From IMG/VR virus record IMGVR_UViG_3300010275_000216: a stretch of DNA of 46,051 nucleotides. One strand, 5' to 3'. Below, piece by piece: positions 1-40,820 of this stretch (its first letter is position 1; every line of letters begins with the position of its first letter). The DNA comes from a virus. Its lineage: Duplodnaviria > Heunggongvirae > Uroviricota > Caudoviricetes. The notes below the pieces were generated by a model. That model was not told where the DNA came from, made no database searches, and saw only the letters and a program-made list of their open reading frames with translations. Made by a program: the position numbers and the translations under genes.

Positions 1-121
1 CCACATAACCTGCACCATAGGTTCCCATTGCCAGAATTAACGCCATTGCCGTTGATGATTCAGGAAAAAATATTTCATGAAACACTAACGCTGCGCCGAG
101 CGAATATAACTGGAAGTCCAT
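1..121 (-). CDS. 5' end of a leftward gene truncated by the window edge; hydrophobic N-terminus (MDFQLYSLGAALVFHEIFFPESS...), probably a host-side membrane protein
   Basis: ATG at about 119-121 on minus strand with in-frame stop two codons upstream; reading frame runs off position 1; not in ORF track because incomplete. Confidence 0.3.
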   Translation of the reverse strand, partial: MDFQLYSLGAALVFHEIFFPESSTAMALILAMGTYGAGYV

Positions 122-724
122 AATTCACAGGTGTTTTTTCCCATCCTGTGGTTTCCTTGGCGTTTTCTAGGTTTTTTCAGATAGTTGCATTTTTTAAAAA
201 GCATCCTAAGTTCGATCTCAGTGTCTATCTGGGGCCTATTTCTGTCCCATATATGCCCCAAAAAGACTCCCCAACAGATAAGTAGTTTTTTCATGGATTT
301 ACGCGTAAAATCAATAACGGCTGGAAATCATTCAATACTCGCACTATCGAAAAATTTACCAGCCAACCGCAGCACGTTCTTGCATAAGGCGTGTCTGCGG
401 TTTTTCAACTATTCAGATACATCACTCCCATCACATTCATTCCTCCGCATCAAAGGCATATAGGCTATATCACCTTGATATTTTTCTTCTTCAGATAAAA
501 ACTGTTATCTATGTATACTTTTAAACCCAATCCGTGTAGAGTCTCTGCATAAGATAGTTTGCAGTTGCCACTTCAGCTTGCGCCATAAACCGCCTGATTT
601 TTGCCGCCACCTGTTAGCATTCCTGTATACCTGAAACGACAATGTTTATCTACGAACTTTAAGAACACCCAGGATAAAAATTGTCAACTATATCATATAT
701 AACACATTACTAATTCGAGGCTAT

Positions 725-838
725 ATGAACAGCATACTGATAATCACTTCGCTCCTTATCATATTCAGCATTTTTAGTCATGCTCTAATAAAATTAGGGA
801 TTGGCATATCCAATAACCCAGACAAAACCGATGTATAA
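725..838 (+). CDS. small hydrophobic 37-aa ORF ([37 protein letters not shown])
   Basis: ATG preceded by GAGG about 6 nt upstream; single predicted transmembrane helix; below ORF-track size cutoff. Confidence 0.25.
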
Positions 839-906
839 GTCAACATATCCTGAATCAGACATACAATATCGCAATGAAAATCAATAATATTTTAAGGAAT
901 ATCTTC

Positions 907-1140
907 ATGAAATCAAAAGACACCCTAAAGTGGTTCCCTGCGCAGCTTCCTGAAGTAAGAATTATCCTAGGGGATGCTGTAGTGGAAGTAGCAAAACAGG
1001 GAAGACCTATCAATACCAGAACATTGCTTGATTACATTGAAGGAAACATAAAGAAAAAGTCATGGCTGGATAACAAAGAATTATTACAAACAGCGATATC
1101 AGTTCTTAAAGACAACAAAAATTTAAATGGTAAAATGTAA
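907..1140 (+). CDS. ydfK: YdfK/YnaE-like prophage cold-shock-associated protein (77 aa from internal ATG)
   Basis: ATG at 907 with AAGGA 9 nt upstream; 77-aa product and position next to pin match the ydfK/ynaE arrangement of Qin/Rac as I recall it. Confidence 0.5.
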   Translation: MKSKDTLKWFPAQLPEVRIILGDAVVEVAKQGRPINTRTLLDYIEGNIKKKSWLDNKELLQTAISVLKDNKNLNGKM

Positions 1141-1458
1141 TATAATAAACTTACTTTTTTATCATTTTTCCACTTTAACAACATTTTGCTCCACTTTTCC
1201 ACGACCAAACAACTTGAAATCTGGTTAAAATAACACGCAACACTATTCTTCTTCCTTGAGTCCGCCCGGAACTCGAAAAACAAACCGAGTTAAGGCCATT
1301 TTTCACAAAATCGATTTTGGATCTCACCAAAATTACGTGGTTGCATACGCATTCGTTTATTTTCGAACGTGTACATACAAATATGTACAAAAATAATCAA
1401 AATTATTTTCTGAGATGCATTATGATATGTACACCAATTTCGTATAGAAGATCTCACT

Positions 1459-2049
1459 ATGTCTCGAATTTATGCTTACTGTCGGGTATCAACTCTGGAA
1501 CAAACAACCAAAAATCAACGTCGGGAAATCGAAAGTGCAGGTTTTAACATCAAATCTCAGCAAATAATTGAAGAACAAATTAGCGGCTCAGCAGCAACCA
1601 GTGAGCGTCCTGGTTTTAACCAGTTGCTTGATCGACTGAAAAGAGGTGATGCATTGATTGTCACAAAACTGGATCGCCTCGGTTGTAATCCAATGGATAT
1701 CAGTAAAACGGTGGAACAACTGACCAAAGCAGGTATCAAAGTGCATTGCTTAGCATTGGGGGGCGTTGACCTGACCAGTCCACCTGGAAAAATGATGATG
1801 CAAGTAATTTCAGCAGTCGCTGAATTTGAGCGAGACCTTTTACTTGAGCGTACTCATTCAGGGATATTAAGAGCACGGGGCGCAGGAAAGCGATTTGGTC
1901 GCCCACCTGTGTTAAATGATGAACAAATACAGAGGGTACTAGAGCAAATTAAGTCAGGTATAAATATAAGTGACATTGCCCAAGAATTCAAAACCTCGCG
2001 GCAAACCATTTTAAGAGCTAAAGCAAAAAATCAGACACCTGATATATAA
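1459..2049 (+). CDS. pin: serine recombinase, DNA invertase (Pin/Hin/Gin family, 196 aa)
   Basis: N-terminal [11 protein letters not shown] catalytic-serine motif, resolvase core, C-terminal HTH; 196 aa as PinQ/PinR; convergent with tfa. Confidence 0.85.
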
Positions 2050-2147
2050 AAATAATCTCGGTGTGAGATTCCTTACGTTTTCCAAGCCCCCCCTTCCTAG
2101 CCTTAAATGGAAAGATACTTCTAATTATAGAATTTATATATCTTACC

Positions 2148-2723
2148 CTACGGTAGGGCTGGCCATTCAATATCCGGTGCAGTTGATGTATCAACACGGT
2201 TCAGCAACACCCGATACTTTTTCCAGGCTTCCAGCAACAAGGTTTCTTTCTCCGTTGCGATCTCCAGATCCACAGCATCCTGAAGCGGCGCTATATGCTC
2301 ACTGGCTACCTGCATCAGGCTGTTTTTTGTTTCTTCCGCCTCCCGGATCCGGAACAGTTTTTCTGCTTCCGTATCCTTCACCCAGGCTGTGCCGTTCCAC
2401 TTCTGAAACTCCCCTTCCGGGGATAACCAGGTGACATTTTCCGGTAATGAGCCGAGTTCAGAAATAAATAACGCGTCGCCGGAAGCCACGTCATAGACCG
2501 TTTTTCCCCGATGGTCTTCAACGAGATGCCACGATGCCTCATCACTGTTGAAAACAGCCACAAAGCCAGCCGGAATATCTGGCGGTGCAATATCGGTACT
2601 GTTTGCAGGCAGACCTGTATGAGGCGGAATATATGCGTCACCTTCACCAATAAATTCATTAGTTCCGGCCAGCAGGTTATAAATTTTTATGGTCCGTGCT
2701 TGTTCACTCATTCTGAATGCCAT
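2148..2723 (-). CDS. tfa: tail fibre assembly protein Tfa
   Basis: N-terminus [38 protein letters not shown] matches my recollection of lambda Tfa along most of its length; start overlaps stf stop. Confidence 0.9.
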
Positions 2724-5674
2724 TATGCGAGCCTCACAATATAGTTAAATGCGATGTTTTTGACGGTGTTTTCCGCGTTACCAGCAGCGTTAACGGTGAT
2801 GGTGTGTCCATGTGAACCAATCGCAACAGAGTGCGTATGAGCACCAATACCGACAGTATGCGCGTGTGCACCCGCAGATGCTGCTGTGCCGGACAGTGAG
2901 TGTGTATGGTTTCCTTCTGAAGATGATTTACCTACCCATTGGGAGGTGCCACTGGTTAATGAGCCACTGATACCAACCTGATTAGTCCCGCTAACTTGAG
3001 TACTCCCTGCCGGAAACATTCCAGTAGGTTGACTCCCGCTATTCGTTCTGGGCCCAGTCTGACTATGTTGGTGGGCCCCAGCTGAACTTGTAGAGCCGCT
3101 CAGACTGTGCGTATGCGCCCCGGTGTTATTCGTGGATTTAGTGCCGTAATCAAACGACGATGTGGTTTTCGTCCCCAAATCCGTACTGGATGCGCTGGCG
3201 CTGTGGGTGTGCGATTTTATGCCGTCCTGTTCCTGAGACAATACGGCCCGACCACTGGCAGGTTTGCCCTTAATCGTCCAGCCACGCATATCAGGGATCA
3301 CGCCTGACGGATAAGCGGCTGCAAGTTTCGGGTATGCAGATTTGTCAAAAGTCTGCCCCTGCATCAGGGCATAACCAGACGGAACGGTATCTGATGGCCA
3401 CGGGATTGGTGCACCGACTGGATAAAACTCTGCAGGAGGATGAGCCGAGGTGTAAAGCTGCGCCCACGGCGACCAGTTTGCGTCGATCGTATCCCGTCGT
3501 GAACGAATAAATGCCGGAGCATGAGCACCGCTTGTACCACTCCAGCCGATGAGTAACTCACCTTCGCCAACGGCTGTCATCCCTTTCAGGTGAATGATAT
3601 TTCCATACGCTGTTGGATATCCGTTGTTATACACCTCGTATAACTCAAGACCTGTTGCCCCCTGCGTATTGTCTGTCAGCGCGGTTACCCGACCTTTTGA
3701 AGCCAGATTAACTGATGATACTGCTGTTCCACCTGACGGTAATGCCCCGATCTCTGATGCCGTTGGCTTATTTCTGGAGTTATAGTCCCTTCGCCAGCCA
3801 GGTGAATAATCTGTTCCGTGATTAATATAGGTAAACTGGGCGTTAGTTGTTCCGCCACCAGTGGAGGTGGTCGGTGTGGTAATGCGGATCGTCATCGCTG
3901 ACTTTATCCCCATTACTTCAATGACGGCTCCTGCGAGATGAATATTACCGCAGCCAGTATCAGTAATGATTTTATTATTGCCATAAGACCAGGAACCCTT
4001 GCACATCCAGTATGGATGGTTAAATGCTCCCTGAGAATCCAGCCACTCGATAAACTGTGCAGTCGTCCAGTTTCCTGTTGTTGTGCTTACTGACCCACCG
4101 AAGGCACGGCAGGCACCAATATTTTTCGTAAAGGTGTCTTTGCCAGGGATATCCGCACCGTTCTGATCTTTCTGCAGACGTTTCTCAGCATTGTCATTGG
4201 CTGCTTTTACTGCCTTTGGCGTTGCCGCCAGCGTTTCAGACGTGCTGTTGGTCGCACTGCTGAGCTGTACTATCCCCTTTTTCGTCGTGCTCGCATCCTC
4301 AAGCGCCACGGCGGATGCAATATCCTCTGCCCGTTTTGCTGCTGTCTCGGCGCGCGTTGCCGCGGATTCCGCCGTACTTTTGCTCTGAGCTGCCGCCGTC
4401 GCACTACCAGCTGCCTCTGTCGCCTTCGTGGATGCCGTCGTGGCGCTGCCTTTCGCTGCTGATGCCTGTCTGGTCGCCTCATCTTTTGAAGCAGACGCAG
4501 ATGATGCCGATGACGCCGCCGAACTGGCGGACGATGCAGCTGCCGTTTTTGAGGATTCTGCACTGGTTTCCGACGCTTTCGCGTTCGTTTCGGATGTCTT
4601 CGCTGCGGATGCAGACCTCGCTGCTGCGCTGGCCTGTTCAGCGGCTTCGCCAGCCTTCGTTGTGGCTGTTGAAGCAGACGATGCGGCACTTTCTGCCGAT
4701 TTTCCGGCGGCAGTGGCTCTGGCTGAGGCCTGCCCGGCACTTGTTGACGCGGCACTGGCAGATGATGCAGCCGCTGTTTTTGAGCCTGCCGCAGCTGAGG
4801 CACTCTGTCCCGCTGCCGTTTCAGAAGACCTGGCGTTCGTCTCGGACGTTTTTGCCGCCTTCGCGGAATTTGCTGCCGCCGTTGCCGAGGAAGCGGAACT
4901 ACTGGCGCTCGAGGATGCGTTCGTTTCTGATGATTTCGCTGCCTCTTTTGAGGCCGCCGCATCCCGGGCTGAGGTGGCAGCTTCTGACGCTTTCGTAGTC
5001 GCGGTGGATGCAGAAGTGGCTGCTGATTGTTGTGACGCTGCGGCATTCGTTTCTGACGTTTTCGCCGCACCGGCACTGGTAGCCGCCGCGCTTTTTGAGG
5101 ACTCTGCAGCGGCAGCACTTTTTTCCGCTTCAGTGGCCTTTGTTGATGCCGTTCCTGCGCTGGAGGACGCTGACTGAGCCGACGAAGCGGCCTGTCCGGC
5201 TGACGTGCTGGCTGCGCGTGCTGAGCCTGCAGCATCAGTCGCATGGGTTGCCGCCTCACTGGCAGATGTGCCGGCATCGCCGGCTGACTTCTTCGCGGCT
5301 GCCGTGTTCTGTGCCACCGCGGACGCGTTACGCGCCACCTCTTCCACCATCAGTTCAAAACGGCGCAGAGCCTCCGGACGGGCATCATCCTCCGTCATGG
5401 CACCGAGAAAATCATTCAGCGTACCGGGTCGGGAATCTTCATACACGGTGATAGTCCCGGCATGTGACGGCGGGAATCCCTCCACCAACAGAATAACGCT
5501 GTACTGACCGTACTCAACGTCCATGCTGTAACGCCCGGCTTCATCCGGATTTTCTGAGGCCAGCGTGTTCACCACCACCGTGTTGCTGTTACGTTTTGCT
5601 TTCAGCTGGATTGTGCAGTTCTGTACCGGTTTTCCTGTGCCGTCTTTCAGTACACCTGAAATCTTTACTGCCAT
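2723..5674 (-). CDS. stf: side tail fibre protein Stf with expanded Ala/Ser-rich central repeats and lambda-like C-terminal receptor-binding region
   Basis: N-terminus [26 protein letters not shown] and C-terminus ...[18 protein letters not shown] as in lambda Stf; ORF-track start at 5680 is GTG, ATG at 5674 preferred; 983 aa versus about 774 in lambda. Confidence 0.9.
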
Positions 5675-5690
5675 ATTCACCCCACAAAAA

Positions 5691-5712
5691 AGCCCGCCTG
5701 AACCGGCGGGCT
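5691..5712 (-). terminator. rho-independent terminator downstream of lom (GC stem AGCCCGCC/GGCGGGCT followed by T6 on minus strand)
   Basis: Inverted repeat with run of A on plus strand immediately 5' of it, about 30 nt after lom stop and 17 nt before stf start. Confidence 0.55.
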
Positions 5713-5738
5713 GTCATAACACTGTGTTACCTGGCTAA

Positions 5739-6338
5739 TCAGAATTTATAACCAACACCAACGATGAACCCGTCAGTGCGCCAGTCGCCACTGCCGGAGC
5801 CTTCATAAGCGACATCAACGGCCACGGATTCGGTCGGGTTAAACTGCACGCCAGCTCCCCACGCCAGAGAGGTGTTACTGTGGCGAGCGTCATCACTTCC
5901 GGTCAGCACATCATGCGTTTTCCCCTTGTTGTCAGTTACGCGGAGATAATCCCCGGAGAAAGTCGACACACGGCTGTAAGCCACACCCGCCATCGCATAC
6001 GCGCTGAACCATTCATTCACGCGCACAGACGGCCCCGCCATCACGCTGAACCAGCGGTTACGAACGGAATCTTCATGCCAGCGGGTATCGCTGTAACGGG
6101 TAAGCTGGCGATTCTTGTCTCCTGCATAGCTGAATGACGTCACCATCCCCAGTGTGTCCGTAAACTCATAACGGTATTTCACGTTAATCCCGTTCAGATC
6201 ATCGCTGCCGGGAACGTTCGTCGAGACATGAAGATACCCCGCGCTCAGCGTGGACTGATGTTCAGACGCCCATGCAGGCGCACCGGATACGGCCAGACAA
6301 ATGGCTGCGGACAAAATGGCTGCATAAAGTTTACGCAT
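5739..6338 (-). CDS. lom: outer membrane protein Lom (Ail/Lom family) with signal peptide
   Basis: Signal peptide [24 protein letters not shown], beta-barrel-like alternation, C-terminal F; lambda position J-lom-stf. Confidence 0.9.
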
Positions 6339-6368
6339 AATTACCTCTCGCTTTTCTGCAATAAAAAA

Positions 6369-6386
6369 GGCGTCATTTCTGACGCC
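6369..6386 (-). terminator. rho-independent terminator between J and lom (GGCGTCA-GAAA-TGACGCC plus T-run on minus strand)
   Basis: Perfect 7-bp stem with 4-nt loop followed by TTTTTTATT on minus strand; lies between J stop (6405) and lom start (6338). Confidence 0.6.
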
Positions 6387-6404
6387 CGTTCTGGGTTATA
6401 AAAT

Positions 6405-9806
<3,402 letters not shown>

Positions 9807-9863
9807 TCACGCTCCATAAACGACAAAACCGCCCGGAGGCGGTTTCACATAAAACGTTTTTCA

Positions 9864-10511
9864 TCAGCGACCAATCACCACAACCTGACCACCATCCCCT
9901 TCGTCTGCCGTGCTGATCTCCTGAGAGACCACCCGCGACCCCACGCGCATTTCACCGTACAGAACGGGCAGAACATTGCCCTGGGCAACCATGTTATCCA
10001 GTGAGGAGAAATAGGTGTTCTGTTTGCCGTTATCTGTACTTGCTGCCGTGGGCGTCCTGGCTTTCGGTGCCAGCATCTGCGCCACTCCGCCCAGGATCAT
10101 ACTGGCCCCTGCCGCATACATGCCCGATACAGCCGCGGCACCCAGCCAGCCCACAGGGTTCCACCATGCCACCGCAATCAGCGCCGCCCCCAGCACCACC
10201 TGAAACACACCGCCACTTTTAGCTCCCGCCAGACGCGGCACGATGTGGATCACGGCACCATTTGCCAGCGGCTCATTAAGACGGGCAGACAATTCGGTTT
10301 CACCTGCATCACGCCCGGCAATGCGTACCTGGTACCAGCCGTCGCTCAGTTTCTGACGAAACGCCGGGATCTGCATGGCCAGCGCCCGGATGGCTTCGGA
10401 CCCCGTTTTCACTCGAAGGTCGATGCGGCGGCCAAATCGTTGTAAATCCCCGTAAAGGCAGATGCGTGCCATGCCCGGTGACGCCAGAGGGAGTGTGTGC
10501 GTCGCTGCCAT
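9864..10511 (-). CDS. I: tail tip assembly protein I
   Basis: Lambda I-like sequence; 5' end overlaps 3' end of K as in lambda. Confidence 0.9.
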   Translation of the reverse strand: MAATHTLPLASPGMARICLYGDLQRFGRRIDLRVKTGSEAIRALAMQIPAFRQKLSDGWYQVRIAGRDAGETELSARLNEPLANGAVIHIVPRLAGAKSGGVFQVVLGAALIAVAWWNPVGWLGAAAVSGMYAAGASMILGGVAQMLAPKARTPTAASTDNGKQNTYFSSLDNMVAQGNVLPVLYGEMRVGSRVVSQEISTADEGDGGQVVVIGR

Positions 10512-36319: not shown

Positions 36320-37006
36320 TCATTCCTGCCCTTCTTTACCGTAGTGGAGTTGACCAATTTTGATTAGAGGGCGTCCCTGAGATTTGCGGTGTAGATTGGT
36401 ATCGCGCAGTGAATACACGCAGCCACAATATTCCTGCTGATAGAATTGTTCGCGCTTGCTGATTTCAATCATGCGGGAAGAGCCGCCCTGCTTTCGCCAG
36501 TTATAATCCCAGTACACCATGCCCGGATAATACGCGACGGCTCGCCGTCCACAGTCGTTAACCTGCTGCATATTTTTCCAGCGTGAAATGCCCAGTGAGC
36601 TACTGATCACACTGAAACCATTTTCAGCGGCATACAGCGCAGTCCGCTCAAAACGCATGTCAAAACACATGGTACAACGGATCCCTCGTTCAGGCTCCCA
36701 TTCCATTCCTTTGGCTCGCTCAAACCAGTTGTCTGTGTCGTAATCAGCATCAATAAATGGCACGCCGTGTTGTTTAGCAAAGCGAATATTCTCATCCTTA
36801 CGAATTAAATACTCTTTCTGAGGATGAATGTTCGGGTTGTAGAAAAAGATGGTGTAGTCGATTCCCGAGGCCTGAAGCGCCTCCATCACTTCACCGGAAC
36901 ATGGAGCACAGCAAGAGTGCAGTAATAGTTTTTTTGCCCCGTTTGGGAGCTCCAATTTGGGGCGTTTGAAATCAGCAACAGTCATAAATGTGTTTATGAG
37001 GTTCAT
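36320..37006 (-). CDS. queH: QueH-like epoxyqueuosine reductase (DUF208)
   Basis: N-terminal [13 protein letters not shown], later CTMCFDMRF and QEYCGC motifs typical of DUF208/QueH; start uncertain (ATG 37006 or 36985, ORF-track GTG 37099), no clear SD. Confidence 0.55.
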
Positions 37007-37038
37007 GAAAATAGCAAAAAGTGTAGCATCAGAACGGG

Positions 37039-37341
37039 CTATCGGAAACAGATGTCTAAATCTGGTAATGTCTGCTTTTGATGCAAAGCAGACAACCACG
37101 GCAGCGCACGAAAATCAGCGATAATGTCGGGATTAATAATCGGGTGACGTCCATCACATAGCGAATGTTCCTCTTTCCTGATATCGCTAAATATCGACCA
37201 TTCGTCATTCTTATCGAACCAGAGCATGCGACTGCCACAGCACATGTCGAGAATGGTAGCCGATGTACTCACAGCATCACCTCCCGATAATTCCCCTGAT
37301 AAAACGTCAGAACACGCTGCATAACTTCGCTCTTCCGGCAC
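37039..37341 (-). CDS. doubtful ORF (100 aa, GTG start) overlapping neighbours in other frames; possibly remnant of a frameshifted gene
   Basis: No SD at any candidate start; overlaps 3' end of the 140-aa gene and 5' region of the QueH-like ORF. Confidence 0.2.
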
Positions 37342-40244: not shown

Positions 40245-40820
40245 ATGGATTTCGACACAATCATGGAAAAGGCTTACGAAGAATACTTCGAAGGCCTTGC
40301 CGAAGGCGAAGAAGCTCTCAGCTTCAGTGAGTTTAAACAGGCACTCAGAATAAGAATGTGCTCTCACAATGACGCAGAGCACAAATATGAGAAGCAAAAT
40401 CAGACCGCAGAAAATTTTGTTCTGGAACCCGGAGAAACGCTTTTCAAAATTCCCGTTACGTGCCCCATTTGCGGTTTTACATCAGAAGAACTTGACGACT
40501 CCTGTAACAATCAGGAAACAACCAAGTATGTCGAAGATGATACCGAGTGCGCACGAAGAACGATTATATCCACGAGTCCAAACTCCAGGACCAATAAATC
40601 TCACTTTGAGAGGGTGATTAATCCACTCCCCCAAACCAATAAAAAAGATGCCGGAGGACAAAAAACCCAATGGAACAACGGGATATCTGTCAAAAAAAGA
40701 CGTTCCATTAAAGACAAACAACGCAGCGCCAACAACTGTAAGCGCTTTATTCCAGTAATCAATTTTCATGTTCTTAAGCGGATTTATTGGTGGTTGCGAC
40801 ATTGCTTAATGAATCCTTAA
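40245..40820 (+). CDS. YdfB/YdfC-region protein as a single 191-aa ORF
   Basis: Starts MDFDTIMEKAYEEYFEGLAEGEE (ydfB-like) and continues uninterrupted; contains CPICGF. Confidence 0.5.
   Translation: MDFDTIMEKAYEEYFEGLAEGEEALSFSEFKQALRIRMCSHNDAEHKYEKQNQTAENFVLEPGETLFKIPVTCPICGFTSEELDDSCNNQETTKYVEDDTECARRTIISTSPNSRTNKSHFERVINPLPQTNKKDAGGQKTQWNNGISVKKRRSIKDKQRSANNCKRFIPVINFHVLKRIYWWLRHCLMNP

Follow-up and report, generated by a model that had tools for sequence, protein, structure and literature searches.

The stretch of DNA analysed here, referred to as the window, is IMG/VR virus record IMGVR_UViG_3300010275_000216 (Caudoviricetes; 46,051 nucleotides [nt]), which comprises a whole Qin-type lambdoid prophage of Escherichia coli located in ydfJ, with the left end of the window being the right end of the prophage. 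Near this end lies a gene of the pinQ/pinR type, here called pin, which encodes a small serine recombinase and is convergent with the tail-fibre assembly gene tfa. An earlier note had taken this gene for a Pin-family invertase that might be the fixed remnant of a tail-fibre switch or act in trans. Our analysis suggests that pin is derived from the resolvase gene tnpR of a Tn3-family transposon, and that positions 1257 to 2093 (837 bp) are very probably what is left of this transposon after an internal deletion, with the insertion located 54 bp downstream of the tfa stop codon. The element and its immediate borders contain the following features.

1252 to 1256, no strand: left target-site duplication TTCCT, identical to 2094 to 2098 and present in all 65 prophage loci with a readable left flank
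1257 to 1294, plus strand: degenerate left inverted repeat (IRL) TGAGTCCGCCCGGAACTCGAAAAACAAACCGAGTTAAG, with 25 of 38 ungapped matches to the transposon inverted repeat (IR) GGGGTCCGCTTGGAAAACGGAAAATATCCCACGCTAAG
1361 to 1446, plus strand: remnant of res and the tnpR promoter, with homology to the plasmid transposon L085 beginning at 1361 (L085 4903)
1361 to 1369, plus strand: half-site h2, TTTCGAACG, assigned from the alignment with transposon res
1384 to 1415, plus strand: presumed site II, consisting of TGTACAAAA, 14 nt and TTTCTGAGA, the sole dimer-type res-like site in the 46 kb
1421 to 1426, plus strand: -10 box TATGAT, which is TATAAT in the transposons
1428 to 1446, plus strand: site III-like pair TGTACACCA/TTTCGTATA, assigned from the alignment with transposon res
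1459 to 2049, plus strand: pin (pinQ/pinR type), a tnpR-derived serine recombinase of 196 amino acids (aa), with Pfam matches to Resolvase (1e-37) and HTH_7 (1.8e-11)
2055 to 2093, minus strand: degenerate right inverted repeat (IRR) ending in the C-run at 2087 to 2093, with 26 of 38 ungapped matches; the transposon alignment reaches its exact terminus
2094 to 2098, no strand: right target-site duplication TTCCT, read from the sequence and also present in the K-12 type

The protein encoded by pin is 80% identical to TnpR of a Tn3-family transposon (P0013, 196 aa, listed on 512 contigs) and 85% identical to both PinQ and PinR of E. coli K-12, as compared to 38% for PinE of e14, 35% for Cin and 32.5% for Gin of phage D108. 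Members of the Hin/Gin/Cin/Pin group are approximately 60 to 70% identical to one another and complement one another; with 32 to 38%, the window protein falls outside this range. Its closest non-prophage homologues are resolvases of Tn3 transposons, not invertases, and relatives at 72 to 76% identity in Shewanella, Vibrio and Serratia also adjoin Tn3-type transposases. By phmmer, Gin scored 99.5 bits, slightly above the 84.9 bits of gamma-delta resolvase, with the solved gamma-delta and Tn3 resolvases at 83 to 85 bits. On these identities the label "Pin-family" given by the earlier note is not confirmed, and the gene start it placed at 1317 belongs to a spurious overlapping open reading frame (ORF) of 76 aa, the true ORF being 1459 to 2049. 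Its description of the surroundings was borne out by the ORF list and Pfam matches, with pin adjoining one tfa and one stf in convergent orientation and no second tfa/stf set.

The element used for comparison is a plasmid transposon of 3815 bp (L085 1823-5637), found on replicons of E. coli, Escherichia albertii and Shewanella. When intact, it is laid out as IRL, tnpA (994 aa, DDE_Tnp_Tn3), a 160-bp intergenic region, tnpR and IRR, with IRs of 38 to 40 bp, and it is a minimal Tn3-family transposon. Window 1361-2091 aligns with L085 4903-5637 at 82% identity over 712 nt, from the intergenic res through tnpR to the exact terminus of the right IR. The IRL of the window is the second-best IR match in the whole window, after IRR, against a maximum of 24 matches in shuffled sequence; when used as a probe, its top matches in L085 and in a second locus, L095, were exactly both transposon IRs (25 matches versus 20 for the next best). 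Both repeats, though degenerate, thus correspond to the approximately 38-bp IRs of the Tn3 family, which start with GGGG and end with TAAG. The TTCCT pentamers abut both IR ends as a 5-bp target-site duplication of the kind made by this family, and are conserved in the K-12 type and in every readable related IMG/VR locus. The C-run at 2087 to 2093 varies in length, with seven C in the window, six in most window-type IMG/VR loci and five in the K-12 type, as compared to GCGGACCCC in the intact transposon.

No tnpA fragment encoding a DDE_Tnp_Tn3 transposase was found anywhere in the window, whose sole match to the 3815-bp transposon is 1377-2087; because the transposase gene is absent, 1257-2093 was classified as a remnant left by deletion rather than as a transposon. 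TnpR (80%), the upstream res from h2 to the ATG and the right IR are all homologous between the two, whereas the window copy lacks the transposase and half of site I, and has worn IRs, a change of Arg71 to Cys and a ratio of nonsynonymous to synonymous substitution rates (dN/dS) that is 4 to 7 times higher. The element is probably Tn5403-like. Tn5403 contains transposition genes only and makes 5-bp duplications (PMC5142620), the annotation of a Klebsiella plasmid lists "Tn5403-pinR" as neighbours (PMC13253593), and the element matches 850 Klebsiella plasmids, with most matching plasmids overall in the band of 80 to 90% identity. The link to Tn5403 is a lead, resting on annotation neighbours, the 5-bp duplication and Klebsiella plasmids, not on a Tn5403 reference sequence.

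Alignment of four transposon intergenic regions gave the half-site consensus TGTMCGAAA and the order of a 26-bp site (h1+h2), a 32-bp site (h3+h4), a TATAAT -10 box and a third half-site pair. By analogy to Tn3/gamma-delta res, these would be site I (the crossover site, nearest tnpA), site II and site III. The window half-sites have one or two mismatches each to the transposon half-sites, h1, i.e., the left half of the presumed site I, is missing, and a half-site pair scan of the window found only the site II remnant and no second res-like site. The window protein has the same domain architecture as Tn3/gamma-delta resolvase, and the intact relative resembles these systems in its divergent tnpA-res-tnpR layout, in half-sites that start with TGTC or TGTAC, and in three dimer-binding regions around the tnpR promoter. 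Differences lie in the subsites, which are 26 and 32 bp in the transposon relatives and 28 and 34 bp in Tn3/gamma-delta res, in the low identity to the solved resolvases, and in the replacement of Arg71 in the window.

This replacement was identified by alignment, in which Cys76 of the window protein falls at Arg71 of gamma-delta resolvase and at the corresponding Arg of Gin, such that KLDRLGR becomes KLDRLGC. In Tn3 numbering, D36 is the active-site position with which the Glu of the window protein was compared. While Y7, R9, S11 and R73 are present, the protein has Glu at D36, as in the transposon TnpRs, and Cys76 at Arg71. The active-site set of Tn3 resolvase is Y6, R8, S10, D36, R68 and R71, and its R71A and R71K mutants exhibit no detectable recombination and approximately 1000-fold slower cleavage (PMC2794168). 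Among the 120 best homologues, Cys was found only in four prophage clusters, whose representatives stand for 374, 2148, 6 and 1066 sequences; Arg was present in 113, and the motif was unreadable in two. Compared to the transposon TnpR, the window and K-12 alleles have 17 derived residues in common, R76C among them, which points to a single change in the common ancestor of the two alleles. The dN/dS value between the two prophage alleles was 0.36, whereas comparisons of transposon-borne copies gave 0.03 to 0.08 and the neighbouring tfa 0.12.

Proteins with Arg76 that might pass for intermediates (P0004 to P0007, 90 to 92% identical to PinQ) were considered as ancestral prophage forms, and the two that were checked, P0007 (L103) and P0005 (L104), are chimeric. 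In these metagenome scaffolds (L103 1-748 and L104 11-700), the 5' part is identical to tnpR of the plasmid transposon, the 3' part, the IR and the tfa flank match the K-12 prophage, and Arg76 is restored. P0007 and P0005 arose either by gene conversion involving the chromosomal fossil and a plasmid transposon or through chimeric assembly, and are not ancestors.

The genes around the element, in the order ynfT, ydfK and pin on the plus strand and convergent tfa, stf, lom and J on the minus strand, include the following.

725 to 838, plus strand: small ORF ynfT/ynaM, Pfam YnaM (6.5e-28), labelled ynfT in E. coli strain 2A and K-12
907 to 1140, plus strand: cold-shock gene ydfK/ynaE, labelled ydfK in strain 2A and K-12, 99 to 100% identical in nucleotide sequence to K-12 Qin
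2148 to 2723, minus strand: tfa, tail-fibre assembly, 191 aa with C-terminal WPALP, Pfam Caudo_TAP (3.6e-44) and alignment with lambda
2723 to 5680, minus strand: stf, side tail fibre, 985 aa, the sole stf of the window, Pfam phage_tail_N (3.1e-71) and Collar

The ynfT/ynaM ORF is part of a conserved cargo module at the right end of Qin/Rac-type prophages, and the region downstream of ydfK is the left side of the transposon target. With an exonuclease and an integrase encoded at its right end, the window holds the complete prophage. The order ynfT/ynaM, ydfK/ynaE, pinQ/pinR, tfa and stf is common to K-12 Qin and Rac, and the window protein has all the hallmarks of the PinQ/PinR orthologue group, i.e., 196 aa, the ynfT-ydfK-pin-tfa-stf module, the KLDRLGC motif and the ydfJ locus. 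The pin/tfa/stf arrangement is therefore the already known, and common, pinQ/pinR module of these K-12 prophages. Segment 1361-2093 is present at a coverage of at least 80% in 2679 of 5426 complete E. coli genomes, with 152 genome records at 95% identity or above (the window allele) versus 2580 at 90 to 95%, the band that holds the K-12-type copies. The isolated phage HannyBb has the same module between its tail-fibre genes and int.

The window and K-12 PinQ/PinR have in common the module, the ydfJ site (for Qin), the IR remnants, the TTCCT duplication and Cys76; they differ in that the window carries a second allele within the same flanking frame, with a protein identity of 85% and approximately 90% nucleotide identity in the gene, as compared to 99% in the flanks, and with perfect palindromes in the window allele only. 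Window 100-1360, which covers ynfT-ydfK and the left IR, is 95 to 100% identical to K-12 Qin per 100-nt bin, as against 85 to 92% for the pin remnant and the tfa 3' end (1361-2300). Such an abrupt mosaic boundary close to the res remnant suggests that the pin segment was exchanged between alleles by recombination.

The closest complete genome is that of E. coli strain 2A, with one mismatch in 1120 nt, where the pin end lies inside an interrupted ydfJ, i.e., at the K-12 Qin site. In this strain (NZ_CP146939.1; L001, L093 41494-49001, L094 1-44770), the integrase end of the Qin-type prophage, by rspB, and the pin end, by ydfJ, are approximately 400 kb apart; both ends read into prophage DNA in the same direction, and at the end of the integrase-side half tfa is followed by sitDCBA. 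Such a layout suggests that two lambdoid prophages bounded a large inversion around the terminus, unlike the window, which has the contiguous arrangement. The e14 P segment was not located in two 49-kb stretches at its expected position in strain 2A, which showed this rearrangement instead. An element of approximately 10 kb that resembles a satellite (L094 13405-23288) splits the gene for the prophage terminase large subunit in strain 2A, and encodes an integrase, an Icd-like protein, a primase, SSB and a prohead protease/capsid fusion.

Several other observations were made in the window. The middle of stf (4270-5280) is a long repeat rich in Ala, Ser and Thr. In frames other than that of stf, the repeat yields long spurious ORFs, and it also gives weak matches to Rfam isrG that remain below threshold. 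A scan of 1-6500 with Rfam detected no family in the pin region; the sole match above threshold was IS009 at 2182-2380 on the minus strand (218.5 bits, gathering score 117), located wholly within the 3' half of tfa and on the same strand, and this "sRNA" family appears to have been modelled on tail-fibre-assembly gene sequence. A terminator scan of 600-2800 gave zero matches, and the small hairpin 3' of the pin stop codon is part of the transposon IR. In the early region of the prophage, an ORF of 259 aa (36320-37099, minus strand) may match, by position only, a gene labelled epoxyqueuosine reductase QueH in the strain 2A prophage; QueH, if present, would be an unusual cargo for a lambdoid phage.

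Three palindromes lie near the ends of pin, the first and last of which had been pointed out by the earlier note and are exact.

1370 to 1389, no strand: palindrome 1, TGTACATA (1370-1377), CAAA and TATGTACA (1382-1389), ending 70 nt before the ATG
1390 to 1409, no strand: a second perfect 8-4-8 palindrome, AAAATAAT CAAA ATTATTTT, abutting palindrome 1 and located in the site II spacer
2146 to 2158, no strand: palindrome 2, CCCTAC (2146-2151), G and GTAGGG (2153-2158), overlapping the tfa stop codon (2148-2150)

Palindrome 1 covers the spacer between sites I and II and extends 6 nt into half-site h3. Nothing in the transposons corresponds to its left arm, its dyad is shifted by 3 bp relative to the ancestral dyad, and its register differs from that of the ancestral resolvase sites. 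It is perfect in 13 of 14 readable window-type loci, whereas the match is at most 7/8 in each of the 52 K-12-type and 13 third-haplotype loci. The palindrome at 1390-1409 has the spacer CATA in K-12, and is absent from the third haplotype and the transposons. Two perfect palindromes with 8-nt arms were found in 1-2160, as compared to 0.38 expected, and 7.7% of shuffles reached two. Palindromes with 6-nt arms are common by chance (69 in the window versus approximately 47 in shuffles), so palindrome 2 is unremarkable. Its codons, GCC-CTA-CCG-TAG, encode the same Ala-Leu-Pro-stop as GCA-CTG-CCG-TAG of K-12, and the palindrome is absent from all K-12-type loci, which have CCCTACGGCAGTG. TyrR, CRP and LexA boxes were considered for palindrome 1, and a Fur box for the loosely Fur-like 1390-1409, and the spacing or sequence was unconvincing in each case.

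The position of pin beside tail-fibre genes raises the question of a former Mu/P1/e14-type cassette, in which a second inverted set of tfa and stf C-terminus once lay between tfa and pin and was later deleted. The adjoining tfa, the historical name "pin" and the slightly higher phmmer score for Gin speak for this explanation, which we consider highly improbable. The gene is enclosed by transposon IRs and a target duplication, its protein is far closer to TnpR (80%) than to PinE, Cin and Gin (32 to 38%), and it points towards tfa, not away from the fibre genes. Paired 26-bp crossover sites, an invertible segment and alternative fibre C-termini or tfa genes, which characterize the Hin, Gin, Cin and PinE systems, are missing from the window, with its single tfa and single stf, although a small serine recombinase with a C-terminal helix-turn-helix and a tail-fibre neighbourhood are common to both. 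These systems also have a Fis-dependent recombinational enhancer within the 5' part of the invertase gene. A search for pix/gix/hix-like crossover sites, as the earlier note had proposed, returned no core or half-site above chance in the window. With the e14 crossover repeat CCTTCTCCCAAACCAA taken from K-12, the pix 16-mer at up to three mismatches had one window match (three mismatches, at 40624) versus 0.47 expected, and the invertase core AAACC-NN-GGTTT had one window match with one mismatch versus 1.97 expected. No long inverted repeats were found in 1-10000, where the best pairs were 29 nt at 76% complementarity. Among 80 related IMG/VR loci, pin was seen in no other arrangement, a second inverted fibre set not having been searched for systematically. 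The idea of a "fixed remnant" accordingly stands insofar as there is no segment or partner site in cis, and falls as regards a remnant of a Mu/P1/e14-type switch. The failure to find an invertible segment in Qin or Rac is explained if pin is a tnpR stranded by deletion of the transposase. 

It could also be that the palindromes are functional, with palindrome 1, together with a third TATGTACA at 1426-1433, serving as an operator or a new recombination site, and palindrome 2 as a hotspot behind the tfa junction. Upstream of pin, the window differs from K-12 at few positions; two of these lie in TGTACA motifs, and at both the window haplotype has the perfect motif. TGTAC is a natural variant of the outer end of the resolvase half-site, and the left arm coincides with a promoter-like -35. 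Only the third TGTACA, however, is ancestral, and the left arm lies in the former inter-site spacer. The state of the motif does not track the protein allele, given that an intact third motif goes with a K-12-type protein in the third haplotype, and TGCACA with a window-type protein in L016. As for palindrome 2, the homology to lambda tfa does stop at its edge, at about 2160/2161, which agrees with the divergence from lambda tfa proposed in the earlier note, and in E. coli genomes the matches confined to tfa break at 2158-2161. The same mosaic junction is nevertheless present in haplotypes without palindrome 2, including the K-12-type copies, which speaks against the proposal that the palindrome is a recombination junction, and the statistics are weak. 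Likewise, palindrome 1 does not pass the check set by the earlier note, which was presence in homologous prophages, since it is imperfect in most of them (K-12 type and third haplotype). We thus consider a function of the palindromes quite unlikely. They are not crossover sites and are incidental, palindrome 1 being a haplotype-specific by-product of drift in a decaying res and palindrome 2 a chance product of synonymous tfa codons.

Action in trans, the other idea of the earlier note, has support from a 2025 paper on K-12 PinQ (PMC12529663), the 85% identical relative of the window protein. Overproduction of PinQ raised inversion of the 1797-bp P segment of e14 from approximately 30% to 88%, and the inverted segment gives rise to the chimeric protein StfE2, which blocks adsorption of T2 (PMC12529663). 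PinQ no longer affected T2 when stfP, stfE or e14 was deleted, deletion of pinQ increased T2 sensitivity, and the authors detected inversions in e14 alone and none in Qin or Rac (PMC12529663). The window protein may by extension be an active trans invertase that flips the P segment at the pix repeats, a role compatible with a transposon origin and consistent with the intact ORF. Several results argue against it. In a pinE single mutant, which is still pinQ+ pinR+, the P segment was locked in the non-inverted state (PMC12529663), so that native PinQ/PinR are not sufficient. The window protein has Cys in place of the catalytic Arg71; its recognition helix, TSRQTILR, is close to T[TS]RQTI[LH]R of the transposon TnpRs, and a half-site pair scan of the 8-kb e14 region found no cognate TGTMCGAAA dimer sites. 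A plain invertase should settle near 50:50, not 88:12, and the full e14 P segment with pinE is present in only 170 of the 5426 genomes, as compared to 2679 with the pinQ/R fossil. Direct catalysis by PinQ on the e14 P segment is thus doubtful, and an active trans invertase encoded by the window rather unlikely.

Returning to the transposon origin of pin, which is well supported, the events may be reconstructed as follows. In a forerunner of the Qin/Rac-type prophages, a Tn3-family transposon would have inserted into the non-essential DNA that separates ydfK from the 3' end of tfa, duplicating TTCCT. A later deletion of approximately 3 kb would then have taken the transposase gene and the adjoining 62 bp of res, including the left half of the presumed site I, and left behind a worn left IR, the old tnpR promoter with its surrounding accessory sites II and III, the resolvase gene now called "pin", and a worn right IR. 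On this account, pin would never have been part of a tail-fibre inversion switch and would be without a pair of sites for action in cis; its position beside tfa is an accident of insertion. The protein retains the resolvase fold and the nucleophilic Ser11, with the prophage lineage alone having changed the equivalent of Arg71 to Cys76. We infer that it is now a DNA-binding TnpR derivative with weakened catalysis, expressed from the ancestral promoter, which was probably self-repressed, and retained under relaxed purifying selection for a function in trans.

Some observations weigh against parts of this account. The left IR match is modest when taken alone, with 25 of 38 positions and shuffles reaching 24. 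The empty target site, a synthetic query joining the ydfK flank, TTCCT and the tfa flank, was not found in the 5426 E. coli genomes and had no exact match in IMG/VR or in one-genome-per-species contigs; for this reason, the insertion is deduced and not seen as a before-and-after pair. That h1+h2 is the crossover site is presumed from the analogy to Tn3/gamma-delta res, not from experiment. If the effect of PinQ on e14 is direct, Cys76 cannot abolish catalysis. Finally, the ORF is intact with Cys in 83 of 83 prophage copies, which argues that the protein still does something; together with the dN/dS of 0.36, the intact ORFs indicate that constraint is relaxed, not lost.

The transposon origin of pinQ/pinR and the Arg-to-Cys change were not found in the searchable literature; they are corrections to the reading of this gene and do not constitute a new kind of system. 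The label "pin" beside tail-fibre genes should not be taken as a sign of an inversion switch. We tentatively propose, as one possibility, that recombinases of the PinQ/PinR types, present in about half of complete E. coli genomes, may be domesticated, catalytically impaired resolvases that lambdoid prophages keep as DNA-binding factors, either repressing or interfering with incoming Tn5403-like transposons through the shared res/promoter sites, or modulating PinE and biasing the orientation of the e14 P segment without cutting. Together, the transposon origin and Cys76 allow a stringent test of the recent claim of direct e14 P-segment inversion by PinQ as a defence against phages; if the PinQ/PinR types are such domesticated resolvases, in either role, the published mechanism of phage defence by a "PinQ invertase" would be indirect.

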